24,000 nucleotides of DNA, from contig NZ_JAYREK010000025.1 of NCBI RefSeq assembly GCF_041908905.1, positions 21,904 through 45,903 on the forward strand, in the 5' to 3' direction. Positions 6,504 to 21,932 of the stretch are shown here, in pieces. Numbering within the stretch: the first letter of the stretch is position 1; each line of letters begins with the position of its first letter. Source of the stretch: Zoogloea sp. (GTDB lineage: Bacteria; Pseudomonadota; Gammaproteobacteria; Burkholderiales; Rhodocyclaceae). The translations under genes were made by a program, and so were the position numbers. The notes under the pieces are model-generated. The model saw only the letters and a list, made by a program, of their open reading frames with translations, searched no databases and was not told where the DNA came from.

Positions 6504-6519
6504 CTTGTTGTCCTCGGTC

Positions 6520-7281
<762 letters not shown>

Positions 7282-7282
7282 G

Positions 7283-8215
7283 TTATTCAGCCTTTCCAAA
7301 CTTGGCTGCCAGCGTCGGGACGAGGCCCTTGGGCAGGAAGATCATGCACACCATCAGGATGCCGCCGAAGGCGACCGTCTCCCAGCCCTCGAAGGTGGCC
7401 AGTGCCTGGGGCAGGGCGGTGAGCAGCACCGCGCCGATCAGCGAGCCATACACCGAGGCCATGCCGCCGATGACGACCATCGTGACGAGCTCGATGGAGT
7501 GGAAGAAATCGGCCAGGTTGGGGGTCACGAAGCCGACGTAGTGGGCGGTGACGCTGCCCATCAGGCTGGCGAACACCGCCGACATCACGAAGATCGCGAC
7601 CTTGTAGCGGACCACGTCGACGCCCACCACCCGCGAGGCGACCTCGGAGCCGTGCAGCGCGCGCAGGGCGCGGCCGAAGGGCGAGTCGATGAGGTTGAGG
7701 GAGGCCCACACGCTCACCGTGAGCAGCGCGGCGACCACCCAGTACCACTGCTTGTCGCTGGTCAGCTCGAAGCCGAACAGGCCGAAGGCCGGTACCGGCA
7801 TGCCGTCGGGGCCGCCCGTCCATTGGGCCTCGTTGCGCACCGCGATGCTGATGATGATGCCGAGGCCGAGGGTGGCCATCGCCAGGTAGTTGCCCTTCAG
7901 CTTGAAGATCGGTCGGGCCACCACGGCCGCCAGCACGCCGGTGGCGACGGCGCCAGCCAGCATCGCCAGCACCGGGTTCCAGCCGAAGTGGGTGGGCAGC
8001 ACCGCCGAGGCGTAGGCGCCAATGCCGAGGAAGCCGGCGTGGCCGAGGCTGATCTGGCCGGCGAAGCCGATCAGCAGGTTGAGGCCGAGGACGATGACCG
8101 CGTTGATCGCCATGCGGATCGCCAGGTCGACGTAGAAGCTGTTGGGCAGCACGAAGGGCAGCACGGCCAGCACTGCGATGACGATGTAGAGGCCGAAATA
8201 AGCGCGCTTGTGCAT
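7283..8215 (-). CDS. livM: LivM-type branched-chain amino acid ABC transporter permease
   Basis: The ORF track frame extends to 8668, but that extension is Arg/Gly/Pro-rich and overlaps livH. The ATG at 8215 (MHKRAYFGLYIVIAVLAVLP..) sits 2 nt after the livH stop (TGACCATG). The ~310-aa product is a polytopic hydrophobic protein with the LivM-like core LNLLIGFAGQISLGHAGF. Confidence 0.9.
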   Translation of the reverse strand: MHKRAYFGLYIVIAVLAVLPFVLPNSFYVDLAIRMAINAVIVLGLNLLIGFAGQISLGHAGFLGIGAYASAVLPTHFGWNPVLAMLAGAVATGVLAAVVARPIFKLKGNYLAMATLGLGIIISIAVRNEAQWTGGPDGMPVPAFGLFGFELTSDKQWYWVVAALLTVSVWASLNLIDSPFGRALRALHGSEVASRVVGVDVVRYKVAIFVMSAVFASLMGSVTAHYVGFVTPNLADFFHSIELVTMVVIGGMASVYGSLIGAVLLTALPQALATFEGWETVAFGGILMVCMIFLPKGLVPTLAAKFGKAE

Positions 8216-8217
8216 GG

Positions 8218-9093
8218 TCACACCCGGTCCGTCACCTTCGCGCCGAACAGGCCGCGCGGCATGAAGAAGAGAATGAAGAGGATCAGCACGAAGGGGATGG
8301 CGTCCTTGTAGGCCGACGACAGGTAGCCGGCGCCCATCGCCTCGAGCACGCCCACCAGCAGGCCGCCCACCACCGCGCCGAGGCCGTTGCCGAGCCCGCC
8401 GAGCACCGCCGCGACGAAGCCCTTCAGGCCGAGCATGATCCCCACGTCGTAGGAGGTGAGGGTGATCGGGGTGATCAGGATGCCCCCCAGGGCGCCCAGG
8501 GCCGCCGACATCGCGAAGCTCATGAACAGCACGCCGTTGGTGTTGATGCCCACCAGCTCGGCCGCCGTGCGGTTGAAGGAGGTGGCCAGCATCGCCTTGC
8601 CGGTGAGGGTGCGGTTGAAGAAGTACCACAGCAGCACCACGACCACCGCGGTGACACCCAGCACCCACAGGCTCTGGGGCATCAGGGTGGCGCCGAGGAT
8701 CTCGATCGGCGCATCGCCGGAGAAGGCCGGCAGGCTGTGGGTGCCCTTGCCGAGGAAGACCTGGACCAGGCCGCGGATCACCAGCGAGGCGCCGATGGTG
8801 ATGATGATCAGGGTCACCGTCTCGGCGCCCTTGACCGGCTCGATGGCGAGCTTCTCGATCAGCACGCCGACCACCGCCGGCACCAGCACCGCCAGCAGCA
8901 GCGCCGCCGGCAGCGGCAGCCCGGCCTGGGTGAACATCACCGCCAGCATGCCGCCGAGCATGATGAACTCGCCCTGGGCGAAGTTGATGACGTTGCTGGC
9001 GTTGTAGATCAGCGTGAAGCCGAGCGCGGCCAGCGCGTAGGTGGCGCCGACGGTGACGCCGGAGAACAGGAACTGCAGCAGTTGGGCCAGCAT
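8218..9093 (-). CDS. livH: LivH-type branched-chain amino acid ABC transporter permease
   Basis: MLAQLLQFLFSGVTVGATYALAALGFTLIYNASNVINFAQGEF is a typical LivH N-terminus. ATG at 9093 with GGGAG 7 nt upstream. The in-frame GTG at 9096 is an alternative start. Confidence 0.9.
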   Translation of the reverse strand: MLAQLLQFLFSGVTVGATYALAALGFTLIYNASNVINFAQGEFIMLGGMLAVMFTQAGLPLPAALLLAVLVPAVVGVLIEKLAIEPVKGAETVTLIIITIGASLVIRGLVQVFLGKGTHSLPAFSGDAPIEILGATLMPQSLWVLGVTAVVVVLLWYFFNRTLTGKAMLATSFNRTAAELVGINTNGVLFMSFAMSAALGALGGILITPITLTSYDVGIMLGLKGFVAAVLGGLGNGLGAVVGGLLVGVLEAMGAGYLSSAYKDAIPFVLILFILFFMPRGLFGAKVTDRV

Positions 9094-9255
9094 CACGCGG
9101 CTCCCGTTCGGACGTAAGGGGTGCGATGGTTCATCGTGTCTCCTGTCGATTGAGCGATCGGATGGGAGGGACGGGCGGCGCCGGCCCCAGAAGAACTCCC
9201 GCCGCAGCGCCGGGGCATGGCGGAGGGAGTTCTGTATTTTGTAATTTATTCCGCA

Positions 9256-9284
9256 ATTAGAAATGATACAAAAAATCTAGTCAA
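9256..9284 (-). promoter_or_regulatory. Candidate sigma70 promoter of the liv-type operon
   Basis: Read on the minus strand: TTGACT (complement of 9279-9284), 17 nt, TCTAAT (complement of 9256-9261). It lies inside the GATACA/TGTATC inverted repeat. Confidence 0.45.
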
Positions 9285-9300
9285 GACAATCTTGTGTATC
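9265..9300. promoter_or_regulatory. Perfect inverted repeat GATACA-N24-TGTATC, candidate PaaX operator
   Basis: GATACA at 9265-9270 and TGTATC at 9295-9300. The same half-sites with the same 24-nt spacing recur at 17536-17571. The flanks are also shared (AATGATACAAAAAA and TGTATCGnATTG). Confidence 0.5.
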
Positions 9301-9410
9301 GAATTGCGGGTTTTAGCGAACCCTCGGCCGGCGCCCGGGGGAGGGCGTGGAGGGCGCTGAAGCACGGGGGATGCCGGGCCGGGGAGGGCGGCCGGACAGG
9401 CGCGGGGGCG

Positions 9411-9449
9411 CGATACGCCGCCCGCCGGGGAGGCGCCGGCGGCGTATCG
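9411..9449. other. GC-rich perfect 12-bp inverted repeat / stem-loop just downstream of the IclR gene
   Basis: CGATACGCCGCC (9411-9422) and GGCGGCGTATCG (9438-9449) with a 15-nt spacer that can pair further (CGCC/GGCG). It starts 13 nt after the IclR stop (9462-9464). No U-tract follows on the minus strand. The outer ends read GATAC...GTATC. Confidence 0.35.
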
Positions 9450-9461
9450 GGTGGCGACCCC

Positions 9462-10265
9462 TCAGGAGGGGGCGTTGGCGTCGCGGGTGGAGCCGAGGCG
9501 CAGCGAGAGGGCGTCGGCGGCGGCCCGCAGGCGGGCCAGGGTGGCGCTGTCGGGGCCCATGTCGATGGCGCCTTCGACGCCCACGATCACCAGCGCCATC
9601 GTGAGGTCGTTCTTGAAGTTGAAGACCGGCGCGGCGGCGGCCTCGACGCCGCGGAAGAGGTATTCGTCGCCGGTGATCACCGCGATGCCCCGTTCGCGCA
9701 CGCCGGCCAGCAGGGCCTCGGCGTCGTCCATGGTGGTGACGCCGGGGGGCAGGTTCTTGCGCTGCTCCACCTCGCGCCTGACGATGGCGCGGGTGGCGTT
9801 GGGCAGCCACGCGGCGAACACCCGGCCGGCGGCCGAGCTGAGCACGCCGAGGGTGGTGCCGGTGACCACGTTGACGGTGATCGGCCGGCGCGGGCGCTCC
9901 CAGCGCACGATGACCGGGCCGTTGTCGCCCCACACCGCCAGCGCCGTGGTCTCGTTGATCTCGTCCCGCAGCTCGGAGATCGCCGCCAGCCCGAGGCGGA
10001 TGCGGTCGAGGCGGTCGATGGCGACCAGGCCGATGTTGAGGGCGAAGGGCCCGAGGTTGTAGCGCGAGGTGAGCGGGTCCTGTTCGACCAAGCCGCTGCG
10101 GATCAGGCTGACGAGATAGCGGTGGGCCTTGGACGGGGGCATGTCGGCGGCGGCGGCGATGTCCTTGAGCATCATCGAGCGCTGGCCGAAGACCATCGCC
10201 TTGAGAATGCCCATGCCCACCTCGAGGGACTGGACGCCGTGTTTTCCTTCCAGCTCTTCGCTCAT
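9462..10265 (-). CDS. IclR-family transcriptional regulator
   Basis: 267 aa. N-terminal wHTH region (VQSLEVGMGILKAMVFGQRSMMLKDIAAAADMPPSKAHRYLVSLIRSGLVEQD) and a C-terminal IclR effector-binding-type domain. ATG at 10265. Confidence 0.9.
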   Translation of the reverse strand: MSEELEGKHGVQSLEVGMGILKAMVFGQRSMMLKDIAAAADMPPSKAHRYLVSLIRSGLVEQDPLTSRYNLGPFALNIGLVAIDRLDRIRLGLAAISELRDEINETTALAVWGDNGPVIVRWERPRRPITVNVVTGTTLGVLSSAAGRVFAAWLPNATRAIVRREVEQRKNLPPGVTTMDDAEALLAGVRERGIAVITGDEYLFRGVEAAAAPVFNFKNDLTMALVIVGVEGAIDMGPDSATLARLRAAADALSLRLGSTRDANAPS

Positions 10266-10336
10266 GGTTGGGAATCCGGTTGTTGGGTTGAATGAGTGTT
10301 CAAAGGGGGTGACGGAAGTGATTACGCAATGGTAAA

Positions 10337-11255: not shown

Positions 11256-13841
11256 TCAGCGCCCCTGGCGCGGCGCCACGGTCAGTCGTTCGATGCGCGT
11301 CGTGCCCTTCACGATCTCGCTCCGCGTGCCCAGCACCGGCTTGTTCCTGTACTGGTCGTAGAGCGCCATCTGGTCCAGGTAGTGGGGGCCGGTGCTGCCG
11401 TCCGGCGCCACGAAGCCGTCCTGCCCGGGCGCCGCCACGTCCCAGCTCCGCACGCCACGCCTGCCCAGCACCGTCAGGTTGTTCTCGGTGCCCCGGTTCA
11501 TCGCCACGTGGGAGAACTGGACTTCCGCCTCGCCGGCCTGGGGCACGCCGAAGAAGTTGCTGGTGAAGAACTTGTTCTTCGCCACCGGCGCCAGCCAGCC
11601 CGCCATGTCGGGGCCGAAGCGCTGGGTGAGGGCGGTGTCGGCCTCGGCGAGGGCCTTCAGCGCCGCCTCGCCGAAAGTGCGCCCCTTCAGGAAGTCGTGG
11701 CGCATCGCCTCGCCGGCTTGCCCGGCACGCAGGATGCGGTAGAGCACCTTGACGCCCGGCTGGACGTTCACCGAGCCGGCCGGGGGCGCTTCGGCGGTGG
11801 GGTAGCCGGCGCTGAGGTAGAACCTGGCGAAATCGACCGGCAGGTCGGCAGCGACGGTGTCGCGCAGGATCGCCGCAAACCACGCCGGCAGGATCGCCGA
11901 GGCCGGGCTGTCGTAGCGGCCGTCCCGGTTGGCGTCGTCGTGCAGGCCGTCCCAGCCCGCCAGCAGCCCGACCATCTGGCGGCGGCGGTCGTCGTCGGGC
12001 AGGCCGGCGACGGCTTTCTCGAGGGCCGGCAGGAAGTAGCGCACATTCACGTCGGCCAGGCTGGTCGGCTTGAGCAGGGCCCACATGGCGTCGGCGTCGA
12101 GGCGCGGGTGGGCGGCGAGGCGCCTCTCGAGTTCGTTGAGGCGGTCCGCCGCGCCCCACGACAGCCACAGCATGTCGGGGTTGGGGTAGCCCTTCATCGG
12201 CGAGTTGTTCCAGTTCACCAGATAGCCGGTGTCGGGGTTGTAGACCTGCGGGTTGCTGCGGAAGGGCAGCAGCCCCTTCCAGTCCATCTCGCCGGTGCCC
12301 GGCACCGGCAGGCGCAGGTCGTGGCCGGCCCGGCGCTCGGGGTACTTGCCGGTGTGCACGTAGCCGATGTTGCCGCGCCGGTCCGTGTAGTACCAGTTGA
12401 TGGTGAGCGCGTTGCGCTCGGCCTGGCCCAGCCAGCCTTTCCAGTCGGTGGCCTGGGCCTGGCGCACCCAGCCGAACAGGGAGTCCAGCTCGCGGCCGCT
12501 CCAGGTGCGCGCCTTGGCGTAGGCCACGCCGGCCGCCTCGTCGCGCTTGACCACCAGGCCATGCACGGTGCGGTACACGTCGAGGGTCTCGGCGGGCGCG
12601 TCCTTCACGCCGATCGTCTCGCTGCGCTGCTCCATCCGCTTCCACTCGCCCTGGTGGAAGTAGTGGGTCGGATCGGCGGGGTCGAGCTTTTCGGCGAAGA
12701 TGTCCACCCCGTCGCCGAAGCCCGCGGTGGCGCCCCAGCCGATCCTGCCGTTGTGGCCGAACAGGATGCAGGGGTAGGCGAAGGGCGTGTTGCCGACGAC
12801 GTCGAAGCCGGCGCCGTGGAGGCCGATACCGAAGGTGTAGGCCGGCGCGAACCAGCCGAACTGGGGGCCGTTGAGGAGGATTGCGTTGGCGCCGGCGGCC
12901 CGCTTCTTTCCGACGATCCACATGTTGCTGGCGGCGGGAAACCCCGCCTGGCCGGTCATCCCGAAGGCTTCGAGTTGGGCCAGCAGCGCGTCCTGGTGGG
13001 CGTTCTGGGGGCCATCGAGCAACGCGCCGTCGGCGTTCCGGGCCAGGCGGGCGAGGCTCGGCGGCGTGTCGCGGTAGTCCGGCAGGGTGTAGGCGACGCG
13101 GCCCTCGGCGCTCACCGGCACGCTGTAGCGGCCGGCGCTGGCGGGCACGGTGGTCGGCGCGTCGGGGTCGACCACCCACTTGAGGTCGTCGAAGATCGCC
13201 TGGCCGCCCGCCGCGCCGTGCTTGTCCTTGAGGGCGGTGAGGAGGCCGAGGTTGTCGATCTCGGTGTTGAAGTCGGAGAAGCGGTTGGCCATCGTGCCGA
13301 CGAAGATCATCACCACGTCGAAGGCCGTCCACGGTTCGGGCTTGAAGCCGAGGTCGATGAACTGCTTGGGCATCAGCTTGCCCGGCTCGGCGTGCACCCG
13401 GTCGAGCCAGGCGTTCATGCCCGCGGCGTAGCCTTCGAGGATGTCCCGGTCGGCCTTGGGCAGCGCGGCGATCTGGTCGTGGATGGATTGCGGCCAATAG
13501 TTGGCGCGGATGCCCTTGTCGAAGGCGACGAACTTGCGCCCGAGCACTTCCGCCACCCGGCCCTGGGTGCTGCGCCGCGCCATTTCCATCTGGAACAGGC
13601 GATCCTGGGCGACCACGTAGCCGTAGCCGTAGAACAGCCCGAAGGGGGTGCTGGCATGGACATGGGGCATGCCGTAGCCGTCGCGCCGGATCTCGACGCT
13701 CTCCATGGGGGCGACGGCCTGGGCTGCGGGGGCGCCCTGGGGCGTACGGGCCGCGGCGGGTGGTGCCACGGTCAGCAGCAGGGCCCCGAGGGCGGCGGTG
13801 AATGCGGCGGTTCGCGGGTTTGGAAAACGGGATCGGGTCAC
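11256..13841 (-). CDS. pac: Penicillin G acylase (Ntn-hydrolase, periplasmic precursor)
   Basis: 861 aa. GTG start at 13841 with GGAGA 6 nt upstream. Signal-peptide-like N-terminus. Strong recognisable similarity to E. coli PGA in the alpha subunit (RDGYGMPH..LFYGYGYVVAQDRLFQMEMARRSTQG.VAEVLG..FVGTMANRFSD...EIDNL.LLTALKDK) and at the beta-subunit N-terminus with the Ser nucleophile (SNMWIVGKKRA..NGPQFGWFAPAYTFGIGLHGAGFDVVGNTPFAYP). Confidence 0.92.
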   Translation of the reverse strand: MTRSRFPNPRTAAFTAALGALLLTVAPPAAARTPQGAPAAQAVAPMESVEIRRDGYGMPHVHASTPFGLFYGYGYVVAQDRLFQMEMARRSTQGRVAEVLGRKFVAFDKGIRANYWPQSIHDQIAALPKADRDILEGYAAGMNAWLDRVHAEPGKLMPKQFIDLGFKPEPWTAFDVVMIFVGTMANRFSDFNTEIDNLGLLTALKDKHGAAGGQAIFDDLKWVVDPDAPTTVPASAGRYSVPVSAEGRVAYTLPDYRDTPPSLARLARNADGALLDGPQNAHQDALLAQLEAFGMTGQAGFPAASNMWIVGKKRAAGANAILLNGPQFGWFAPAYTFGIGLHGAGFDVVGNTPFAYPCILFGHNGRIGWGATAGFGDGVDIFAEKLDPADPTHYFHQGEWKRMEQRSETIGVKDAPAETLDVYRTVHGLVVKRDEAAGVAYAKARTWSGRELDSLFGWVRQAQATDWKGWLGQAERNALTINWYYTDRRGNIGYVHTGKYPERRAGHDLRLPVPGTGEMDWKGLLPFRSNPQVYNPDTGYLVNWNNSPMKGYPNPDMLWLSWGAADRLNELERRLAAHPRLDADAMWALLKPTSLADVNVRYFLPALEKAVAGLPDDDRRRQMVGLLAGWDGLHDDANRDGRYDSPASAILPAWFAAILRDTVAADLPVDFARFYLSAGYPTAEAPPAGSVNVQPGVKVLYRILRAGQAGEAMRHDFLKGRTFGEAALKALAEADTALTQRFGPDMAGWLAPVAKNKFFTSNFFGVPQAGEAEVQFSHVAMNRGTENNLTVLGRRGVRSWDVAAPGQDGFVAPDGSTGPHYLDQMALYDQYRNKPVLGTRSEIVKGTTRIERLTVAPRQGR

Positions 13842-14243: not shown

Positions 14244-15200
14244 TCAGCTCCGCCCGTCGCCGAGGGGGTCGTCTTCGCGGAAGCGTTCGTGGATGAGGCT
14301 GCTGGCCGGGGGGATCTCGCCGGTGGCGAGCTGGAGATGGCTGTCCAGGTGGCGCTCGGAGGGCGCGAGGAGGCGGCGGTAGAGCTCCTTGCAGAGCAGG
14401 CGGGCCTTCTGCCCGGGCCAGTCGGTGGGGAGCAGCACGTCGGGGAGTTCCGGGTCGCGCAGTAGCAGGCGCCGGTAGTCGTGGATCAGCAGCACGCGCA
14501 GCAGGAAGGCGGTCTCGTCGTCCACCTCGCCGCCGGCCTCGGAGCGCAGCGCGTCCAGCACCGGCTGGTAGCAGGCGACGAAGCCGTCGTACATGCCGGC
14601 GAGGTGCTCGAGGTTCCAGGCGCCATTGACCATGTCCACGTCGCTCGCCGCGTTGGCGAACTGGGCATCGGCGGCCAGCAGCGGCTTGAGCCGGCCCAGC
14701 AGGTCGGCCAGGCCCTCGGCCAGCAGCGCGTCGAAGGCGGCGCTGAGGTCGGCGCTGGGGTGCACGAAGCAGTCGCCCCCCAGGGTGCCGAAGCCCTGCC
14801 AGAACAGGGCGCGGCGCAGGGCCTCGCGTTCCTTGTGGGTGAGCTCGCCGACGGTGACGATGAGGCGCCAGCGGCGGTCCCACAGGGGCGCGCTGGAGGC
14901 GTAGATGTGCCGCGAGGCTTCCTCGAAGCGTCGCTGGCCGGAGGGGGTGAGCAGGTAGTCGGTGCGCCGGCCGACGGGCTCGGTGCGCAGCCATTCTTCC
15001 TTGGCGAGCCGGAAGACCGAGGTGCGCACCAGCCGCTCGTTGAGGTCGAGGGGTTCGAGCAGCCGGATCAGGCTGCCGAGCCAGATGCGGCTGCCCCGCG
15101 GGAGCACCGCATCGCCGAAGACCGAGATGATGAGCGAGCCCGCCTGGACGCGGCCTTGCTGGCGGAAGTCATCGAGACGTTTGTGGGCTTCGGGGAGCAC
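14244..15200 (-). CDS. paaX: PaaX, phenylacetyl-CoA-responsive repressor of the paa regulon
   Basis: 318 aa. GTG start at 15200. Characteristic PaaX N-terminal region SLIISVFGDAVLPRGSRIWLGSLIRLLEPLDLNERLVRTSVFRLAKEEWL..GRRTDYLLT. Confidence 0.9.
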   Translation of the reverse strand: MLPEAHKRLDDFRQQGRVQAGSLIISVFGDAVLPRGSRIWLGSLIRLLEPLDLNERLVRTSVFRLAKEEWLRTEPVGRRTDYLLTPSGQRRFEEASRHIYASSAPLWDRRWRLIVTVGELTHKEREALRRALFWQGFGTLGGDCFVHPSADLSAAFDALLAEGLADLLGRLKPLLAADAQFANAASDVDMVNGAWNLEHLAGMYDGFVACYQPVLDALRSEAGGEVDDETAFLLRVLLIHDYRRLLLRDPELPDVLLPTDWPGQKARLLCKELYRRLLAPSERHLDSHLQLATGEIPPASSLIHERFREDDPLGDGRS

Positions 15201-15287: not shown

Positions 15288-16337
15288 TCAGAGGTTCAGC
15301 AGGTGGGCCGCGTCGGGGATCTCGGGCTGTTGCCGGGCAAAGAAGCCTTCGGTGTGGATCAGCTCGGGGCGCGCGCCCAGGGCCTTCACGGTGGCCACGC
15401 AGCTGTCCACGAAGGCCGGGCTGCCGGCGGCAAAGATGGTGTGCTTCGACAGGTCGGGGAACAGCCCCGGCAGCACCGCATCGACGCGGCCGGAGAGGCA
15501 GCCTTCGGCCTCCTCGCGGGTGAGGGTGATCCTGTAGTCGAAGGCCCGGTGCTTGGTGCGCCACCAGGCCATCAGGCCCCGGGCGTAGACGTCGGCCTCC
15601 GTGCGCGCCGAGAACAGCAGCGTGACCGGCTTGCGGAAGCCGCGGCGCAGCGCCGCCTCGGTGAGCGCGAGGATGGGCGCCAGGCCCGTGCCGGCGGCAA
15701 GGCACAGCACCGGCGTGTCGACGCCCGGGTCGCCGATGAAGGTGCCGTAGGCGCCCGACAGCTTGACGCTCTCGCCGATGGCAAGGCGGTCGTGGATCCA
15801 CTGGCTGGTCACGCCGTCGTCGGCGCGGGCCACCTGCAGCACGAGTTCGCCGTCGGGCCGCGGGGCGTTGGAGATCGAGTAGGCGCGGGGCGGGATGTCG
15901 GCGCGCGGGTTGCCGAGGGTCACGTACTGCCCCGACCAGTAGCGGATCGGCTGGCCGACCGGGCGCAGGCGCAACTCGACCACGCGCTCGGCCACCGCGC
16001 GCTTGTCGGTGACGACGAAGAGCGCGTCCTCCCGGGGCGGAAAGAGCTTGGGCCGGGCGTCCTCGGTGCCCCATTCGATGGTCAGCTCGTCGGAGATCGG
16101 CTTGGCCATGCACATCAGGCCGTAGCCCTGGCGGCGCTCCTCCTGGGACAGGGCCATGTCGAGCACCATGCCCTGGTCGAACTGGCCCGCCGTGACCTTG
16201 ACCTTGCATTCGCCGCAGGCGCCGGCGCGGCAGTTGTTGGGCAGCGCGTAGCCTGCCTTTTCGAGGGCCATCAGCACGGTGTCGCCGTAGGCGCATTCCA
16301 CCGACTTGCCCGAGGGGTGCATGATGATGCGGGACAT
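15288..16337 (-). CDS. [2Fe-2S] ferredoxin / FNR-type NAD(P)H oxidoreductase fusion (reductase partner of the upstream diiron oxygenase)
   Basis: The ORF track frame opens at 16427. The ATG at 16337 (MSRIIMHPSGKSV..) gives 349 aa. N-terminal plant-type cluster motif CRAGACGECKV...LMC, flavin motif RAYSIS and NAD(P)H motif AAGTGLAP. Domain order is as in the reductases of soluble diiron monooxygenases. Confidence 0.85.
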   Translation of the reverse strand: MSRIIMHPSGKSVECAYGDTVLMALEKAGYALPNNCRAGACGECKVKVTAGQFDQGMVLDMALSQEERRQGYGLMCMAKPISDELTIEWGTEDARPKLFPPREDALFVVTDKRAVAERVVELRLRPVGQPIRYWSGQYVTLGNPRADIPPRAYSISNAPRPDGELVLQVARADDGVTSQWIHDRLAIGESVKLSGAYGTFIGDPGVDTPVLCLAAGTGLAPILALTEAALRRGFRKPVTLLFSARTEADVYARGLMAWWRTKHRAFDYRITLTREEAEGCLSGRVDAVLPGLFPDLSKHTIFAAGSPAFVDSCVATVKALGARPELIHTEGFFARQQPEIPDAAHLLNL

Positions 16338-16427
16338 GGTTTGTTCTCGGTGAGGGGGATGGGTAAGGCGCGGGAGGAGGGGGCGCTGTTTCTCCCCACG
16401 CCTTCCTCCTGGCGCCTGACGCTTCAA

Positions 16428-17456
16428 TCAGAAGACGGGAATGATGTCTTCCATCTCGATGTCGCTGATCTCCTGGCCGGTGATGCCCACTTCGGGGATC
16501 GCCGGGAAGGGGATGTTGTAGCGGTCGAGCACGCCCTTCAGGTTGATCATGGCGTTCTTCCAGTTCTGCAGCTTCATCTCGTAGGTGGGAATGCCGAAGC
16601 CGGCGCCGCGGGCGACTTCCTCGGCCTCGCGCTGGTTGGCGATGAAGTCGGCGGGGAGGTCCCAGAACTCCATCGGCGGCTCGAACAGCACCGCCGACAG
16701 GAACAGGTAGCCGGCGCGGATCTGCTTGGTGACCACGGACTTGGTCTCTTCCTTGAGGCCCGGGTAGTCGCGCTCCATCACCGCCATGCAGATCGCCATG
16801 TGGCGTCCCTCGTCGCGGCCGATGTTCTTGAAGCCTTCCTTGAAGACCGGCTCGCGGGAGTTGTCGAACATCTGCTTGAAGATGGTGGCGGCGGCGATCT
16901 CGCCCATCAGGAAGGAGCTGAACAGCACCGCCAGGTCGTACTTGGGCACGGCCTGCTTGTAGCCGTTCCAGTAGCGCGAGCCATTGAAGTACAGCCACTG
17001 CACGTTCTTCTGCAGGCGCTTGCCGAGCTCGGTCTTGGGCTGGTAGGTGATCGGGTCCGGGTGGCCGAGCATCCTGGTGATGGCCAGGCCGCACATGATC
17101 TCGTGGTTCTGCTCGTCGCGGGTGACCGAGAAGAAGCACTTGCGGACCGGGTCTTCCTCGTGGACCTCATAGGTCTTGATCAGCGCTTCGGCAAACACCG
17201 GGGGCGCCGAGGCGTCGAACACCGACAGCAGGCTCCACCAGTAGGCGATCGATTCGCGTTCTTCCCAGGTGTAGCTGTCCACGTCCAGGGTGTCCCACGG
17301 CAGCTTCTCCGGGTCCCAGTTCTCGCGCAGGGCGGCCTGCCAGACCTCCTGCAGCTTCTTGGTCTTGCTGTTCCACGACAGCGGATAGACGTTGGGCTGC
17401 TGGATTTCGGGCGGAAATTCCATCTTGTCGGCGAACCGTTCCTTGCTGACGCTCAT
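16428..17456 (-). CDS. Ferritin/R2-like diiron-carboxylate oxygenase, single-subunit type, function unknown
   Basis: 342 aa. Two diiron half-motifs: VFDAS...(34)...RDEQNH and MGEIA...(30)...RDEGRH. ATG at 17456 with GAGGAG 8 nt upstream. Followed by a dedicated reductase gene. Confidence 0.8.
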   Translation of the reverse strand: MSVSKERFADKMEFPPEIQQPNVYPLSWNSKTKKLQEVWQAALRENWDPEKLPWDTLDVDSYTWEERESIAYWWSLLSVFDASAPPVFAEALIKTYEVHEEDPVRKCFFSVTRDEQNHEIMCGLAITRMLGHPDPITYQPKTELGKRLQKNVQWLYFNGSRYWNGYKQAVPKYDLAVLFSSFLMGEIAAATIFKQMFDNSREPVFKEGFKNIGRDEGRHMAICMAVMERDYPGLKEETKSVVTKQIRAGYLFLSAVLFEPPMEFWDLPADFIANQREAEEVARGAGFGIPTYEMKLQNWKNAMINLKGVLDRYNIPFPAIPEVGITGQEISDIEMEDIIPVF

Positions 17457-17530: not shown

Positions 17531-17560
17531 ATAATGATACAAAAAAATAATTTCCGTCAA
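17531..17560 (-). promoter_or_regulatory. Candidate sigma70 promoter of the diiron oxygenase-reductase(-paaX) unit
   Basis: Read on the minus strand: TTGACG (complement of 17555-17560), 18 nt, CATTAT (complement of 17531-17536). It is embedded in the GATACA-N24-TGTATC repeat. Confidence 0.4.
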
Positions 17561-17571
17561 CAAAATGTATC
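17536..17571. promoter_or_regulatory. Perfect inverted repeat GATACA-N24-TGTATC, candidate PaaX operator
   Basis: GATACA at 17536-17541 and TGTATC at 17566-17571. Identical half-sites and spacing to 9265-9300. It begins 80 nt upstream of the oxygenase ATG. Confidence 0.5.
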
Positions 17572-17808: not shown

Positions 17809-19476
17809 ATGACGCACCCCCTCTTCGAAAAGCATCGCGCCCGCCTGGATGGCGCCGTCGCGGCGATCGCCTCGCGTGCTTACTGGTCGGCGTTCAGCGA
17901 GATGCCCAGCCCCAAGGCCTATGGCGAGACCGCGCCCGATGACGGCAAGCGTGCTTTCGAAGCCCACCTGGGCAAGCGTTTCGAGCTGGATCAGCCTGGC
18001 CTGACCGGCTGGCACGGTGGTGAGTCTTCCCCCTACGGCATCGCCCTCGGCGTGAGCTACCCGGTGTGCGACCCGGAGGCCCTGGTGGCCGCCGGCCACG
18101 CGGCGATGGCCGGCTGGCAGGCGGTGGGCGCGGATGGCCGCACCGGCATCTGTCTCGAGATCCTCGACCGCCTCAACAAGCAGAGCTTCGAGCTCGCCCA
18201 CGCGGTGATGATGACCACCGGCCAGGGCTGGATGATGGCCTTCCAGGCCGGTGCCCCCCACGCCCAGGACCGTGGCCTCGAGAGCGTCGCCTACGCCTGG
18301 CGCGAGCAGAGCTTCGTGCCCGCCGAAACCGTGTGGGAGAAGCCCCAGGGCAAGAACCCGCCGCTGGTCATGAAGAAGCACTTCCAGATCGTCGGCCGCG
18401 GCACCGCGCTGGTGATCGGCTGCGGCACCTTCCCGACCTGGAACACCTACCCGGGCCTGTTTGCGGCGCTCGCCACCGGCAACCCGGTGATCGTCAAGCC
18501 CCACAGCAACGCCATCCTGCCGGCGGCGATCACCGTCCGCACGATCCGCGCGGTGCTCTCCGAAAACGGCATCGACCCCAACCTGGTCAGCCTGTGCGTC
18601 GCCGACAAGCGCGCCACCACCCAGGCCCTGGCCACCCACCCGGCGGTCAAGTCCATCGACTTCACCGGCAGCAACGTGTTCGGCCAGTGGCTCATCGACA
18701 ACGCCCGCCAGGCCCAGGTGTACGCCGAGCTGGCCGGTGTCAACAACATCGTCATCGAGTCCACCGACGCCTACAAGGCGATGCTCGGCAACCTGGCCTT
18801 CACGCTGTCGCTGTACTCCGGCCAGATGTGCACCACCTCCCAAGCGATCTTCATGCCGGCCGGCGGCATCGAGACCGACCAGGGCCACAAGAGCTACGAC
18901 GAGTTCTGCGCCGACCTGGCCGCCGCCGTCCAGCGCTTCCTGTCGAAGCCCGAGGTTGCCCACGCCGTGCTCGGCGCGATCCAGTCCGCCGACACCGCCG
19001 AGCGCATCGACGTTGCCAACAGCGGCGCCCTGGGCAAGGTCGTGCTGGCCTCCACCAGGCTCGACAACCCCGACTTCCCGGCCGCCACCGTGCGCACCCC
19101 GGTGCTGCTCGCCTGCGACGCCGCCGACGAGAAGCTCTACATGGAAGAGCGCTTCGGCCCGATCGCTTTCGTCGTCAAGACGGCCGACAGCGCCGCCGCC
19201 ATTGCCCTCTCCGAGCGCGTGGTGAGCACCCACGGCGCGCTCACCGTGGGCGTGTATTCCACCAGGCAGGACGTCATCGACGCGATGACCGAAGCCACCT
19301 GGCGCAGCAAGGTCGCCCTGTCGATCAACCTCACCGGCGGCGTCTTCGTCAATCAGTCGGCGGCCTACTCCGACTACCACGGCACCGGCGGCAACCCGGC
19401 GGCCAACGCCTCCTACGCCGACTCGGCCTTCGTCGCCAACCGCTTCCGCGTCGTCCAGCGCCGCTACCACGTTTGA
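17809..19476 (+). CDS. paaN: PaaN-type aldehyde dehydrogenase (ring-opening / 3-oxo-5,6-dehydrosuberyl-CoA semialdehyde dehydrogenase; PaaZ-like ALDH without MaoC hydratase domain)
   Basis: 555 aa with an ALDH fold. First gene of a paaGHIKJ operon. The length and N-terminus (MTHPLFEKHRARLDGAVAAIASRAYWSAFSEMPSPKAYGE) are as I recall for the PaaN subfamily. No C-terminal hot-dog domain. Confidence 0.85.
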   Translation: MTHPLFEKHRARLDGAVAAIASRAYWSAFSEMPSPKAYGETAPDDGKRAFEAHLGKRFELDQPGLTGWHGGESSPYGIALGVSYPVCDPEALVAAGHAAMAGWQAVGADGRTGICLEILDRLNKQSFELAHAVMMTTGQGWMMAFQAGAPHAQDRGLESVAYAWREQSFVPAETVWEKPQGKNPPLVMKKHFQIVGRGTALVIGCGTFPTWNTYPGLFAALATGNPVIVKPHSNAILPAAITVRTIRAVLSENGIDPNLVSLCVADKRATTQALATHPAVKSIDFTGSNVFGQWLIDNARQAQVYAELAGVNNIVIESTDAYKAMLGNLAFTLSLYSGQMCTTSQAIFMPAGGIETDQGHKSYDEFCADLAAAVQRFLSKPEVAHAVLGAIQSADTAERIDVANSGALGKVVLASTRLDNPDFPAATVRTPVLLACDAADEKLYMEERFGPIAFVVKTADSAAAIALSERVVSTHGALTVGVYSTRQDVIDAMTEATWRSKVALSINLTGGVFVNQSAAYSDYHGTGGNPAANASYADSAFVANRFRVVQRRYHV

Positions 19477-19605: not shown

Positions 19606-20400
19606 ATGGAATTCAAGAACATCCTTTTTGCGGTGGCCGACGGCGTCGCCCGCCTGACCCTCAACCGCCCGGACAAGCTCAACAGCTTCACCGGCGAGAT
19701 GCACGCCGAGCTGCGCGCCGCCCTCGACGCCGTCCAGGCCGACAAGACCATCCGCGTGCTGGTGCTCACCGGCGCGGGCCGCGCCTTCTGCGCCGGCCAG
19801 GATCTGGCCGACCCGGACATGCAGCAGGTCGGCGGCAGGATGCCGGACATCGGCAACGTGGTCGAAGCCAACTACAAGCCGCTGATCCTGCGCCTGCAGA
19901 ACCTGCGCGTGCCGACCATCGCGGCGGTCAACGGCATCGCCGCCGGCGCGGGCGCCAGCGTGGCGCTGGCCTGTGACCTGGTGGTGGCCAGCAAGTCGGC
20001 CTCCTTCCTGCAGGCCTTCAGCAAGATCGGCCTCGTCCCGGACACCGGCGGCACCTGGTTCCTGCCCCAGCGGGTCGGCATGGCCCGGGCGATGGGTCTG
20101 GCCCTGCTGGCCGACAAGCTGCCCGCCGAGAAGGCCGCCGAGTGGGGCCTGATCTGGGAAGCCGTCGCCGACGACGCCTTTGGCGCCCGCATCGATGCGC
20201 TGGCCGCCCAGCTCGCCGCGATGCCCACCAAGGCGCTGGTGCGCACCCGCCAGGCGATGCACGCCGCGCCGGGCCACACCCTCGAGCAGCAGCTCTCCTT
20301 CGAGGGCAGCTTCATGCGCGAGCTGGGCTGGAGCGCCGACTACGCCGAAGGCGTCGCGGCCTTCATGGAAAAGCGCGCCCCCAAGTTCACCGGAGAATGA
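19606..20400 (+). CDS. paaG: PaaG, 1,2-epoxyphenylacetyl-CoA isomerase (crotonase family)
   Basis: 264 aa. Close match to E. coli PaaG (LTLNRP.KLNSF..EMHAEL...L..V..D.TIR.L.LTGAGR.FCAGQDL ... SADY.EGV.AF..KR.P.FTG). GGAG RBS. Confidence 0.9.
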   Translation: MEFKNILFAVADGVARLTLNRPDKLNSFTGEMHAELRAALDAVQADKTIRVLVLTGAGRAFCAGQDLADPDMQQVGGRMPDIGNVVEANYKPLILRLQNLRVPTIAAVNGIAAGAGASVALACDLVVASKSASFLQAFSKIGLVPDTGGTWFLPQRVGMARAMGLALLADKLPAEKAAEWGLIWEAVADDAFGARIDALAAQLAAMPTKALVRTRQAMHAAPGHTLEQQLSFEGSFMRELGWSADYAEGVAAFMEKRAPKFTGE

Positions 20401-21932
20401 GCGTGAGCCAGGCCCTCAACTCCTCCGCCATCGTCGCGGTGGTCGGTACCGGCGCCATGGGTGCCGGCATCGCCCAGGTCGCCGCCGCGGCCGGCCACGT
20501 GGTCAAGCTCCTCGACAACCGCCCCGAGGCCGCCGCCAAGGCCGTCGCCGGCATCCGCGCCCAGTTCGCCAAGCTGGCCGACAAGGGGCGCATGGGCGCC
20601 GAGGCCGCCGCCGCGGCCAGCGAGCGCCTGCAGGCCGTCGAGCAGCTCGCCGACCTGGCCGACGCGGCCCTCGTCGTCGAGGCCATCGTCGAGAGCCTCG
20701 AGGCCAAGCAGAGGCTCTACCGCGATCTCGAAGATATCGTCGGCGCCGGCTGCATCTTCGGCACCAACACCTCGTCGATCTCCGTCACTGCCATCGGCTC
20801 GGCCCTGCAGCGCCCCGAGCGCCTGGCCGGCCTGCACTTCTTCAACCCGGCGCCGCTGATGGCGCTGGTCGAGGTGGTGTCCGGCCTCGCCACTGACCCG
20901 GCGGTGGCCGCGACCCTCTTCGACACCGCCGCCGCCTGGGGCAAGACGCCGGTGCATACCCGCTCGACGCCGGGCTTCATCGTCAACCGGGTCGCCCGCT
21001 CGTACTACGGCGAGGCGATGCGCCTGCTGGGCGAGGGCGCCGCTGACGTCGCCACCCTCGACGCGGTGATGCGCGAGGCCGGCGGCTTCAAGATGGGCCC
21101 CTTCGAGCTCACCGACATGATCGGCCACGACGTCAACTTCGCCGTCAGCCGCTCGGTGTGGAACGCCTACTTCAACGACCCGCGCTTCCTGCCCTCGCTG
21201 ATCCAGCAGGAGCTGGTGGACGCCGGCTTCTACGGCCGCAAGAGCGGGCGGGGTTTTTACGATTACCGCGAGGGCGCCGAGCGCCCGCAGCCCAGGTCGG
21301 CCGTCGCCCAGCCGGTGCCCGAGGCGATCGTCCTGCACGGCCATTCGCCGGCCGTCGAGGCCATCGCCGACCGGCTCTACGAGCGGGGCGTGGCCTACAC
21401 CTGGGGCGAAAGCACCGACGGGCGGATCGCCGAGGTCGGCGACGCGGTGGTCTTCCAGACCGACGGCCGCACCGCCACCCAGCGCGCCGCCGAAACCGGC
21501 ATCGCCAACATGGTGCTGATCGACCTCGCCCTCGACTACACCACGGCCACCCGCCTGGCGGTGAGCGTCGCCCACACCTGCTTCGCGCCGGCCGCCGCCG
21601 CCGCGGTGGGCCTGCTGCAGGCCGCCGGCTTTGCCGTTTCGCGCTTTGCCGACGTGCCCGGGCTGGCGGTGATGCGCACCCTGGCCACCCTCGCCAACGA
21701 GGCCGCCGACGCGGTGAACCAGGGCGTCTGCGACGCCAAGGGCGCCGACGCGGCGATGCAGCTCGGCGTCAATTACCCCAAGGGGCCGCTCGCCTGGGCC
21801 GACGCCGTCGGCGTCCGGGTGATCTGCCAGGTGCTGCGCCATCTCGGCGCCTTCTACGGCGAAGACCGCTACCGCGTCTCGCCGCTGATCCAGCAGGCAG
21901 TCTTTGCCGGAAAGGGCATCCATGTCCACTAA
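20397..21932 (+). CDS. paaH: PaaH, 3-hydroxyadipyl-CoA dehydrogenase
   Basis: The ORF track frame opens at 20142. The ATG at 20397 overlaps the paaG stop (ATGA). 511 aa. NAD-binding VAVVGTGAMGAGIAQVAAAAGH, plus NTSSISVTAIG..PERLAGLHFFNPAPLMALVEVVSG and STPGFIVNRVAR, as in E. coli PaaH. Confidence 0.9.
   Translation: MSVSQALNSSAIVAVVGTGAMGAGIAQVAAAAGHVVKLLDNRPEAAAKAVAGIRAQFAKLADKGRMGAEAAAAASERLQAVEQLADLADAALVVEAIVESLEAKQRLYRDLEDIVGAGCIFGTNTSSISVTAIGSALQRPERLAGLHFFNPAPLMALVEVVSGLATDPAVAATLFDTAAAWGKTPVHTRSTPGFIVNRVARSYYGEAMRLLGEGAADVATLDAVMREAGGFKMGPFELTDMIGHDVNFAVSRSVWNAYFNDPRFLPSLIQQELVDAGFYGRKSGRGFYDYREGAERPQPRSAVAQPVPEAIVLHGHSPAVEAIADRLYERGVAYTWGESTDGRIAEVGDAVVFQTDGRTATQRAAETGIANMVLIDLALDYTTATRLAVSVAHTCFAPAAAAAVGLLQAAGFAVSRFADVPGLAVMRTLATLANEAADAVNQGVCDAKGADAAMQLGVNYPKGPLAWADAVGVRVICQVLRHLGAFYGEDRYRVSPLIQQAVFAGKGIHVH

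Follow-up and report, generated by a model that had tools for sequence, protein, structure and literature searches.

A predicted paa-regulon diiron protein and its reductase as a candidate two-component phenylacetyl-CoA ring oxygenase in Zoogloea and related bacteria

The window, a 24,000-nucleotide stretch of a Zoogloea sp. contig, holds a minus-strand unit of three genes beside genes of phenylacetate catabolism. They encode a diiron protein (DiFe), a reductase (Red) and a PaaX repressor. The first two were proposed in a preliminary description of this DNA; both are real open reading frames on the minus strand, at the coordinates below, and carry the diiron half-site and ferredoxin/FNR motifs ascribed to them.

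9265–9300, no strand: second copy of the operator-like inverted repeat GATACA-N24-TGTATC, upstream of a livHMGF-like ABC transporter (pattern match)
14244–15200, minus strand: paaX repressor, third gene of the unit (TIGR02277, 285 bits against a cut-off of 264.55; Pfam domains PaaX, PaaX_M and PaaX_C)
15288–16337, minus strand: Red, [2Fe-2S] ferredoxin-FAD-NAD(P)H reductase with BenC/MmoC-type domain order (349 aa)
16428–17456, minus strand: DiFe (P0001), putative diiron oxygenase of an unnamed family, ferritin-like/R2-like (342 aa, from translation)
17531–17560, minus strand: sigma-70-like promoter TTGACG-N18-CATTAT, overlapped by the first operator (consensus match only)
17536–17571, no strand: GATACA-N24-TGTATC, the operator-like inverted repeat that overlaps the promoter of DiFe (pattern match)
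17809–19476, plus strand: paaN, PacL-type ring-opening aldehyde dehydrogenase, divergent from DiFe (TIGR02288, 909 bits against 578.75)
19606–20400, plus strand: paaG, epoxyphenylacetyl-CoA isomerase, which would consume the proposed product (TIGR02280, 374.6 against 345.15)
20142–21932, plus strand: paaH (NF006124, 665.8 bits; TIGR02279, 664.7 against a cut-off of 669.4)
22425–23750, plus strand: paaK, phenylacetate-CoA ligase, the maker of the proposed substrate and PaaX effector (TIGR02155, 702.9 against 646.3)

DiFe starts at an ATG with a GAGGAG ribosome-binding site 8 nt 5' of the start codon. The Red frame opens at a TTG at 16427, and the ATG at 16337 fits the spacing in 78 other loci. 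No terminator-like sites lie between DiFe, Red and paaX on the minus strand, and Red is directly 3' of DiFe in all 78 of the loci long enough to show this. The true start of paaH is placed later than the start of its frame because the HMM match begins at residue 91. A complete paaABCDE set lies ~3 kb past the window end in the Zoogloea genome, and a penicillin-acylase-like gene is located near DiFe-Red within the window. Contigs from sludge RNA libraries cover DiFe and paaN, with one contig spanning the Red/DiFe junction; as such contigs measure neither level nor a single transcript and may include DNA, they are a hint only.

The DiFe protein contains the motifs VFDAS (residues 78–82), RDEQNH (113–118), MGEIA (184–188) and RDEGRH (214–219). 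Among 29 homologues, with identity down to 23%, E97, D114, H118, D215, R218 and H219 are invariant, H118 and H219 being the only invariant histidines. Residue 81 is D or E without exception, and conservation is at least 90% at E115, E186 and E216. DiFe has the two half-sites of a ferritin-like diiron-carboxylate oxygenase, D/E81...D114-E115-x-x-H118 and E186...D215-E216-x-R218-H219, and D81, E115, H118, E186, E216 and H219 are the likely diiron ligands. E97 was considered as the first ligand and rejected in favor of D81, since the helix spacing inferred from secondary structure pairs D81 with E115. Residue 122, four residues past the first His, is a Cys that is invariant in the main clade; we take this position to be the equivalent of the radical Tyr of class Ia R2 (E. 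coli R2 numbering). Conservation of DiFe is very high, and every homologue is annotated as hypothetical, ferritin-like, rubrerythrin or diiron oxygenase. No NCBIfam model fits the protein, a single-protein sequence search of the PDB gave no match, and fused forms longer than 600 aa were not found, which is weak evidence. Its ESM Atlas matches are 'ferritin-like' clusters only, and a profile search gives a weak match to R2lox (E 1e-4 to 2e-3). The AF2 model of DiFe is helical, with a pLDDT of 88, and its top fold matches are all diiron or dimetal proteins. The nearest is R2lox 4hr0_A (Z 19.4, rmsd 3.3, 264 residues aligned), and RNR R2 proteins match with a VIA Z of 16.4–18.6 over 256 residues at best (Foldseek E ~4e-4, TM ~0.5), giving DiFe the R2 fold of class I RNR R2. 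As modeled, DiFe resembles R2lox and RNR-R2 in fold more than it does PaaA, AurF or BoxB.

Red is composed of Fer2 (7–80), FAD_binding_6 (111–200) and NAD_binding_1 (213–313) domains, with the motifs C36-x4-C41-x2-C44...C76, RAYSIS (RxYS) and AAGTGLAP (GxGxxP). It is a Fer2-FNR oxygenase reductase, having an N-terminal plant-type [2Fe-2S] domain followed by FAD and NAD domains, and it reaches no equivalog cut-off (BenC, 146.7 against 430; PaaE, 110.5 against 420.8; MmoC, 124.6 against 500). The Pfam domains and ligand motifs agree with the earlier proposal of a two-component system made of a diiron oxygenase and an FNR reductase with an N-terminal ferredoxin domain. The canonical phenylacetyl-CoA epoxidase, in turn, is the multi-subunit PaaABC(D)E, in which PaaE carries its [2Fe-2S] domain at the C-terminus. 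In PaaE of the Zoogloea genome, the ferredoxin domain occupies residues 282–357 at the C-terminal end, in the opposite order to Red. DiFe does not match the PaaA and PaaC models (TIGR02156, TIGR02158) at E up to 0.01, whereas PaaA of the Zoogloea genome scores 540 bits. The pair was described as distinct from PaaABCDE, and the missing model matches and the reversed domain order uphold this. DiFe as a PaaE-less variant of PaaA was also considered, and rejected because of the lack of a model match.

As first described, the pair stands under a paa-type operator (17536–17571) and is followed by paaX. The pattern GATACA-N24-TGTATC matches twice in the window, against 0 expected from 100 shuffles. 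With an operator shared between its promoter and paa catabolic promoters, DiFe-Red is predicted from sequence to belong to the paa regulon, and PaaX would be the protein that binds the repeat. The repeat is kept ~70–110 bp upstream of DiFe in many loci and genera, including loci that lack PaaABCDE. In some genera, DiFe-Red lies away from the paa cluster, at 0.9–2.6 Mb from paaG in four single-contig genomes. The promoter of the distant DiFe-Red carries GACCGACCGGTCGATC plus TTGATCCAGATCAA, and an identical pair is found between paaN and paaG of the same genomes. In two complete genomes, a genome-wide search allowing up to 1 mismatch finds the GACCGACCGGTCGATC/TTGATCCAGATCAA pair at those two sites only. 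Judged by these operators, regulon membership appears to hold under two different regulators.

The neighborhood of the pair varies with lineage. DiFe-Red is linked to clusters of the paaN type, to a paaZ-type cluster on a Vitreoscilla plasmid, and to paaX alone; in Paraburkholderia, DiFe-Red-PaaX stands by itself amid unrelated genes. In Ottowia-like loci, the pair is directly divergent from paaA, and in some genera it adjoins bktB and a cobD/ampE-like gene. A Variovorax plasmid carries a 52%-identical DiFe homologue between a PaaK-like ligase and a reductase. Nearby are a PaaG-like crotonase, a MaoC/PaaZ-C protein, a thiolase and an indolepyruvate ferredoxin oxidoreductase, and PaaABCDE is absent from this locus. 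Linkage of orthologues to paa genes elsewhere, on which the preliminary description set weight, or shared operators are seen in most proteobacterial loci examined. A clade of soil Actinobacteria, ~50% identical to DiFe, has dapA, RNase J and ftsK as neighbors, and neither a reductase nor paa genes were seen beside it. Another homologue, in Nonomuraea, is isolated in uninformative surroundings, and a metagenome scan gave matches of the actinobacterial-type clade only.

The comparison set comprised 80 genome loci, mostly from related Betaproteobacteria. Of 55 other genomes with DiFe and Red, 21 have no match to PaaA, PaaB or PaaC; several are type strains, and one is a complete chromosome, from Azonexus. 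All 21 retain paaN, G, H, I, K, J and the binding protein at 63–90% identity; on the complete chromosome of Azonexus sp. IMCC34839, the order is paaN-G-H-I-K-J-SBP-paaF-ECH, bounded by a convergent histidine-kinase gene. In genomes G633 and G690, a 770-bp gap lies precisely at the position of paaABCDE in the syntenic cluster of G584. Between PaaA-less genomes, every measurable paa gene has a dN/dS of 0.00–0.37, and DiFe, at 0.00–0.13, is lowest or joint-lowest in 7 of 8 genome pairs. The paa genes of PaaA-less genomes are not decaying and are under purifying selection. Records of phenylacetate assimilation (API 20NE) were sought for the PaaA-less isolates with no usable result, and the search yielded no data on their growth with phenylacetate.

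In a family sample of 201 Rhodocyclaceae genomes, PaaG is above its cut-off in 35 of the 37 DiFe-positive genomes, the remaining two being fragmentary. Seventeen genomes from 14 genera have DiFe and PaaG and lack PaaA. PaaABCDE is also present in 18 of the 37 (G000 included), and the pair is therefore dispensable there for the ring-oxygenation step. Neither oxygenase is present in another 22 genomes that have PaaG, which means that a PaaG match alone does not demand an epoxidase; of 20 such loci looked at, 8 contain a lone PaaA-like gene and 12 are reduced clusters. The DiFe family is rare overall, and no homologue besides that of G000 turned up in 400 genomes sampled evenly across the phylum.

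The pair was earlier given a peripheral role, as a funnelling step or in the modification of phenylacetyl-type compounds. This part of the preliminary description is not supported as worded. The 21 genomes keep the lower pathway and the pair without PaaA, PaaB or PaaC, and a funnelling enzyme is therefore an inadequate explanation. What the evidence indicates instead is the central step of ring oxygenation. Since DiFe-Red is the sole oxygenase in the otherwise complete pathways of many related bacteria, it is probably a substitute there for PaaABCDE, the classical five-protein ring epoxidase. With moderate confidence, we propose that DiFe and Red form a two-component phenylacetyl-CoA (arylacetyl-CoA) ring oxygenase, which is redundant in Zoogloea and replaces PaaABCDE elsewhere. 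The modeled diiron-carboxylate oxygenase fold, together with a dedicated NAD(P)H reductase, would provide appropriate chemistry for ring oxygenation. Several observations weigh against the proposal: the actinobacterial clade with neither reductase nor paa neighbors, the isolated Nonomuraea homologue, the genomes that have PaaABCDE as well, the 22 PaaG-positive genomes with neither oxygenase, and a fold nearer R2lox and R2 than the known CoA-ester oxygenases PaaA/C and BoxB.

We infer the following substrate, product and electron path. PaaK would form phenylacetyl-CoA, which would release PaaX from the GATACA-N24-TGTATC operator overlapping the DiFe promoter. Electrons would pass from NAD(P)H through FAD and the N-terminal [2Fe-2S] cluster of Red to the diiron site of DiFe, and the reduced site would activate O2 and oxygenate the phenylacetyl-CoA ring. 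The most likely product would be the 1,2-epoxide, as made by PaaABC(D)E, to be processed by PaaG, the alternative oxepin-CoA hydrolase, PaaN, PaaJ, PaaF and PaaH. DiFe-Red would act as a second oxygenase beside the complete PaaABCDE in Zoogloea, and as the only one in many relatives. For the broader claim, that a single R2-like diiron protein and a BenC-type reductase make up a complete phenylacetyl-CoA ring epoxidase that has repeatedly displaced PaaABCDE in Rhodocyclaceae and other Proteobacteria, the balance tips slightly in favor.

Alternatively, DiFe-Red may serve the paa regulon as an accessory oxygenase, making no ring 1,2-epoxide and acting in side-product detoxification, with other arylacetyl-CoAs, or in precursor funnelling. 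It might hydroxylate or detoxify, for example, 2-hydroxyphenylacetyl-CoA, or might act on substituted, hydroxyphenylacetyl- or indoleacetyl-CoA. The coexistence with complete PaaABCDE in Zoogloea and in 18 of the 37 DiFe-positive genomes of the family sample fits such a role, as does the penicillin-acylase-like gene near the pair in the window. In addition, the indolepyruvate ferredoxin oxidoreductase in the Variovorax cluster could supply other arylacetyl-CoAs. We nevertheless find this reading doubtful: it leaves unexplained the 21 genomes, and the 17 of the family sample, that keep an intact lower pathway under selection, with PaaG and no PaaA, PaaB or PaaC. Moreover, no CoA ligase, amidase or other peripheral enzyme consistently accompanies the pair, which is joined only by paa core genes, PaaX and the ABC transporter.

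It is improbable that DiFe is not a substrate oxygenase, having instead an R2lox- or rubrerythrin-like protective, cofactor-maturing or redox role and being co-expressed with O2-dependent aromatic catabolism. Such a protein could handle peroxide or iron, or repair another enzyme. The closest folds, R2lox and RNR-R2, have natural substrates that are unknown or functions other than small-molecule oxygenation, 'rubrerythrin' is among the source names of DiFe, and the actinobacterial clade sits among housekeeping genes without a reductase. However, every proteobacterial locus has a dedicated NAD(P)H-[2Fe-2S] reductase in the operon, which is typical of catalytic oxygenases, the operator is shared specifically and exclusively with paa promoters, and DiFe persists exactly where the epoxidase is missing. 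That DiFe-Red is unrelated to phenylacetate and merely carried along by synteny is very improbable and already disfavored: most of the 80 loci come from related Betaproteobacteria, where synteny may be inherited, and bktB and the cobD/ampE-like gene adjoin the pair in some genera, but the paa link survives different cluster architectures (paaN, Vitreoscilla paaZ, Ottowia-like, stand-alone with paaX) and a change of regulator and operator, and DiFe is essentially confined to PaaG-positive genomes among the 201 Rhodocyclaceae.

A ring oxygenase of the DiFe-Red type would bear on an earlier observation. Carlström et al. (2015, PMC4453571) described aerobic growth on phenylacetate in two bacteria whose paa cluster lacks paaABCD and retains 'paaE', and posited a yet-to-be-identified epoxidase. 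DiFe-Red may be this epoxidase in such paaABCD-less degraders; neither Sedimenticola (selenatireducens CUZ) nor Dechloromarinus (chlorophilus NSS) is a genus named among the DiFe matches listed. Price et al. (2022, PMC9007349) covered the alternative oxepin-CoA hydrolase and not DiFe, and the family is not mentioned in PMC13186573. Central to the catabolism of phenylalanine, styrene and other aromatics, the aerobic hybrid phenylacetate pathway occurs in ~16% of sequenced bacteria according to reviews (PMC9493321), and its ring epoxidase is taken as its signature. If our proposal is true, predictions from genomes that call the pathway broken for lack of paaABCDE would be in error for many bacteria of denitrifying and wastewater habits (among them Azonexus, Dechloromonas, Brachymonas and Rivihabitans), and the 2015 question of the missing epoxidase could be put to a direct test with two genes. 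A far simpler, two-protein aryl-CoA epoxidase would also be useful to enzymologists and for tropone/oxepin engineering.

Comparison with known systems leaves DiFe uncharacterised, as the preliminary description had concluded: family models, profile search and fold comparison assign it to none of AurF/CmlI, R2lox, PaaA or BoxB. R2lox (PDB 4HR0) and RNR R2 are its best structural matches and, like R2, DiFe has an Asp-type first metal ligand, but identity is only 11–16%. Unlike R2, DiFe has no R1 gene nearby (no RNR large-subunit gene among the genes of the window), and Cys122 stands in place of the radical Tyr of class Ia R2. For R2lox, which is marked by an Mn/Fe cofactor, a Val-Tyr ether cross-link and a bound fatty-acid ligand, neither a dedicated reductase nor a pathway is known, whereas DiFe is paired with Red. 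The arylamine N-oxygenases AurF and CmlI (PF11583), diiron enzymes that act on aromatic substrates, as DiFe is proposed to do, form the sole Pfam family that DiFe touches, at 23 bits and below the gathering cut-off of 29.6, which leaves it outside the family. Their folds match with Z 14.6 and 12.8, below R2lox, and DiFe has no biosynthetic-cluster context. AurF and CmlI have a third histidine ligand at the diiron site; in the DiFe alignment, the invariant histidines are H118 and H219. The alpha subunits of soluble multicomponent monooxygenases match with Z 14.9–16.1, with chains of ~500 aa, and no alpha/beta(/gamma) or coupling-protein genes of the sMMO, ToMO or phenol hydroxylase type adjoin the pair in the window and 80 loci. 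Likewise, MmoC and BenC share the Fer2-FAD-NAD order of Red and are its best NCBIfam matches, but no alpha/beta/gamma hydroxylase, coupling protein or Rieske oxygenase adjoins Red.

The two aryl-CoA epoxidases are the closest systems in proposed function. PaaABC(D)E of E. coli and Pseudomonas (PDB 3PVR, 3PW1) has the substrate, product and pathway position proposed for DiFe and Red. Both combine a diiron-carboxylate catalytic protein with an NAD(P)H, FAD and [2Fe-2S] reductase, and both are under a paa repressor, as predicted here for the pair. The PaaC chain and DiFe belong to the ferritin-like superfamily (Z 14.7). However, PaaABC(D)E has PaaA, PaaB, PaaC and PaaD, whereas DiFe is a single oxygenase gene, and a system of two genes with an N-terminal ferredoxin domain in Red falls outside the PaaABC(D)E type. 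BoxAB of Azoarcus evansii (PDB 3PER), like DiFe-Red, is a two-component system of one diiron oxygenase and one reductase, is placed in an aerobic hybrid CoA-dependent pathway, and makes an aryl-CoA ring epoxide, the reaction proposed for our pair. BoxB, of ~470 aa, belongs to a separate family (fold match Z 14.1; DiFe has no match to its model TIGR03225) and reportedly does not accept phenylacetyl-CoA (PMC4453571). BoxA is another kind of reductase, Red reaching only 25.5 bits against the cut-off of 459 for TIGR03224. If the proposed function is true, DiFe would be the third ferritin-like family independently recruited for aryl-CoA ring epoxidation, after PaaA and BoxB.

DiFe, a 342-aa ferritin-like diiron protein, and Red, its [2Fe-2S]-FAD-NAD reductase partner, lie in one direction with paaX, and no terminator-like site separates the three genes on their strand.

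Features of the window
16428-17456, minus strand, DiFe (342 aa)
15288-16337, minus strand, Red (349 aa)
14244-15200, minus strand, paaX
11256-13841, minus strand, penicillin-acylase/PvdQ-like Ntn hydrolase (861 aa), between paaY and paaX
9265-9300, second perfect copy of the GATACA-N24-TGTATC inverted repeat
5211-9096, livHMGF-like ABC transporter

A 352-bp AT-rich spacer divides the DiFe side from paaN, paaG, paaH and paaK, which run in the opposite direction, and paaY, the penicillin-acylase-like gene and the transporter lie upstream in the window. Past the window end, the same contig holds paaI, paaK, a 3-oxoadipyl-CoA thiolase, a binding protein and a crotonase close to the alternative oxepin-CoA hydrolase, and then a complete paaA-B-C-D-E, which encodes the canonical phenylacetyl-CoA epoxidase (PaaABCDE). 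The penicillin-acylase-like gene is missing from the corresponding position in 80/80 other loci and is thus a local insertion. On balance, we favor the prediction that DiFe and Red form a two-component phenylacetyl-CoA ring oxygenase, redundant with PaaABCDE in this Zoogloea genome and the sole oxygenase in many relatives.

PaaA is missing, with no match at E up to 0.001 in whole-genome searches, from 21 of the 55 other genomes carrying the pair, and the same 21 also lack PaaC and PaaB. They include the complete chromosome of Azonexus sp. IMCC34839 and the isolates Brachymonas denitrificans DSM 15123, Rivihabitans pingtungensis DSM 29661, Dechloromonas hortensis MA-1, D. denitrificans ATCC BAA-841, and Azonexus hydrophilus DSM 23864 and ZS02. 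In Azonexus sp. IMCC34839, the cluster runs paaN-G-H-I-K-J, binding protein, paaF-like hydratase and alternative hydrolase, ends at a convergent histidine-kinase gene, and encodes all steps except ring oxygenation; DiFe-Red is its only oxygenase. The paa genes of PaaA-less genomes are not decaying. In eight pairs of such genomes, every paa gene that could be measured gave a dN/dS of 0.00-0.37 (a single PaaJ comparison, which returned a stop, was left out), and DiFe, at 0.00-0.13, was lowest or joint-lowest in seven. An accessory role of the pair on a related CoA ester is a less likely but plausible alternative.

Among 201 Rhodocyclaceae genomes drawn evenly, PaaG scored above cut-off in 79. 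Both PaaA and DiFe were found in 18 of these, PaaA only in 22, DiFe only in 17 (14 genera, four single-contig genomes) and neither in 22; these figures are counts with no statistical test, since related genomes are not independent. Only two DiFe-positive genomes, both fragmentary cases, lacked a full PaaG match. The pathway-hole argument is tempered by the "neither" class. In 8 of the 20 "neither" loci examined, a lone 272-aa PaaA-like gene lies directly upstream of paaG (L097:9123-9941, plus strand; also L096 and L098-L103), with a score of 70 bits for TIGR02156, whose cut-off is 280. Its copies, from eight genomes without canonical PaaABCDE or DiFe, are 63-87% identical to one another, and the gene could represent a third, minimal version of the pathway's oxygenase. 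The other 12 loci hold reduced paaY / paaG-I-J-K clusters, mostly without paaN and paaH. With a lone PaaA-like gene or a reduced cluster at these loci, the oxygenase module of the phenylacetate pathway seems replaceable in more than one way.

The neighborhood of the pair was compared across 80 species genomes (Zoogloea, Azonexus, Dechloromonas, Paraburkholderia, Brachymonas, Rivihabitans, Ottowia and others). Red directly follows DiFe in 78/78 loci long enough to show it, and the pair almost always diverges from paaN-G-H-I-K-J and is followed by paaX or an ABC transporter, the latter directly after Red in Dechloromonas- and Azonexus-type loci. In two loci the pair is directly divergent from paaA, on Vitreoscilla filiformis plasmid pVF1 it adjoins a paaZ-type cluster, and in Paraburkholderia adhaesiva DiFe-Red-paaX forms a module of its own with unrelated neighbors. 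On plasmid 2 of Variovorax sp. RA8 (L116, 93068-110670), a 52%-identical DiFe sits between a PaaK-like ligase and a [2Fe-2S] reductase in a compact paa-like cluster that contains no PaaABCDE. Nearby are a TetR gene, a MaoC/PaaZ-C protein, a PaaG-like crotonase, an OB-fold protein with a thiolase, an ABC transporter, an FAD-linked oxidase and an indolepyruvate ferredoxin oxidoreductase, a gene content that again points to a putative arylacetyl-CoA substrate. The linkage of orthologues to paa genes holds for the proteobacterial clade and fails for a soil-metagenome clade (80 Streptosporangiales-like loci, L119-L198), ~50% identical to DiFe, whose neighbors are dapA, RNase J, ftsK and acyl-CoA dehydrogenase, with no reductase or paa genes. 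Therefore, the paa link is a property of the proteobacterial clade rather than of the whole family, which has at least one other role. DiFe and Red themselves are unlikely to have a role that is non-catalytic or unrelated. The acidic and His ligand columns of the two diiron half-sites recognized in the preliminary description are invariant or nearly so in homologues down to 23% identity.

The same description placed an operator before DiFe and paaX after the pair, and both placements stand. A GATACA-N24-TGTATC copy lies in front of DiFe over a sigma-70-like promoter, and the second precedes the livHMGF-like transporter, which probably serves the regulon in phenylacetate uptake; no copy would be expected in the window by chance. 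A 333-aa ORF without family match (9294-10295, plus strand) overlaps the livH operator and promoter region and is probably not a gene. Many genera, PaaA-less genomes included, have the repeat some 70-110 bp upstream of DiFe. In another four Rhodocyclaceae genera, paaN/paaG are not adjacent to DiFe-Red (80-84% identical). The distance, which four single-contig genomes reveal, is 0.9-2.6 Mb, and the neighbors of the pair there are a cobD/ampE-like gene and bktB. The repeat is absent from this distant pair in all four genera and is replaced by GACCGACCGGTCGATC followed by TTGATCCAGATCAA in the DiFe promoter (L199-L205, L208, L211). This bipartite element, common only to the DiFe promoter and the paaN/paaG region, lies between paaN and paaG in 5/5 genomes examined (L212-L216), and in two complete genomes GACCGACCGGTCGATC occurs at these two sites only, allowing one mismatch. 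Clusters with the element contain no paaX, and GACCGACCGGTCGATC presumably resembles TetR-type PaaR sites. Membership of the pair in the regulon outlasts a change of putative regulator. In two of the genomes with the distant pair (99% complete, no PaaA), the paaK-paaJ gap is 770 bp, at the exact place of paaABCDE in the syntenic cluster of a relative. At L199, one of the loci with DiFe-Red apart from the paa cluster, an integron integrase gene (7564-8559, plus strand) lies ~200 bp downstream of Red, and an ISAs1 transposase is also nearby.

Sludge metatranscriptome libraries from two studies contain contigs that are 99-100% identical to DiFe and paaN, and one contig spans the Red/DiFe junction. 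These contigs are only a hint that the pair is expressed in sludge. Carlström et al. (2015, PMC4453571) described paa clusters without paaABCD that keep 'paaE', in two bacteria able to use phenylacetate for aerobic growth, and posited an epoxidase not yet identified at the time. Red reaches 110 bits against the PaaE model, so that an annotator would label such a gene 'paaE'; the lone 'paaE' of those clusters is a candidate link only. In the literature after that study, we found no paper naming the enzyme. Red does have the N-terminal ferredoxin ascribed to it (Pfam order Fer2, FAD_binding_6, NAD_binding_1), opposite to the PaaE of this genome, which carries its ferredoxin at the C-terminus.

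DiFe touches a single Pfam family, AurF, below cut-off, and no NCBIfam family covers it. Searching the PDB with the single sequence gave no match; a profile of 29 homologues matched R2lox and RNR-R2 at E about 1e-4. The AlphaFold2 model is an all-helical bundle (pLDDT 88, pTM 0.86), for which Foldseek ranked RNR-R2 and R2lox top at TM about 0.5.

Fold matches to DiFe (structural-search Z scores, all against representatives)
R2lox, 19.4
Aldehyde-deformylating-oxygenase-like protein, 19.1
RNR-R2, 18.6
sMMO alpha, 16.1
PaaC, 14.7
AurF, 14.6
BoxB, 14.1

The family is small (243 clusters at 50% identity among 1.8 billion representatives, many of them fragments), and its members are named hypothetical, ferritin-like, rubrerythrin or diiron oxygenase in every source. 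DiFe is extremely conserved: beta-, alpha- and gammaproteobacterial members share 76-92% identity with the Zoogloea protein, and those from Arcobacter and Bacteriovorax clusters share 74-78%. Profile, fold and family-model scores make DiFe a separate family within the ferritin-like diiron superfamily with the R2 branch nearest, in line with the initial view, which could assign it to no characterized subfamily from sequence alone. Its C-terminal tail (residues 336-342, ...IIPVF) is invariant in the main clade and modeled at pLDDT below 50; like the tail of R2, it may serve as a peptide that docks to its partner, here the reductase, which is only a guess.
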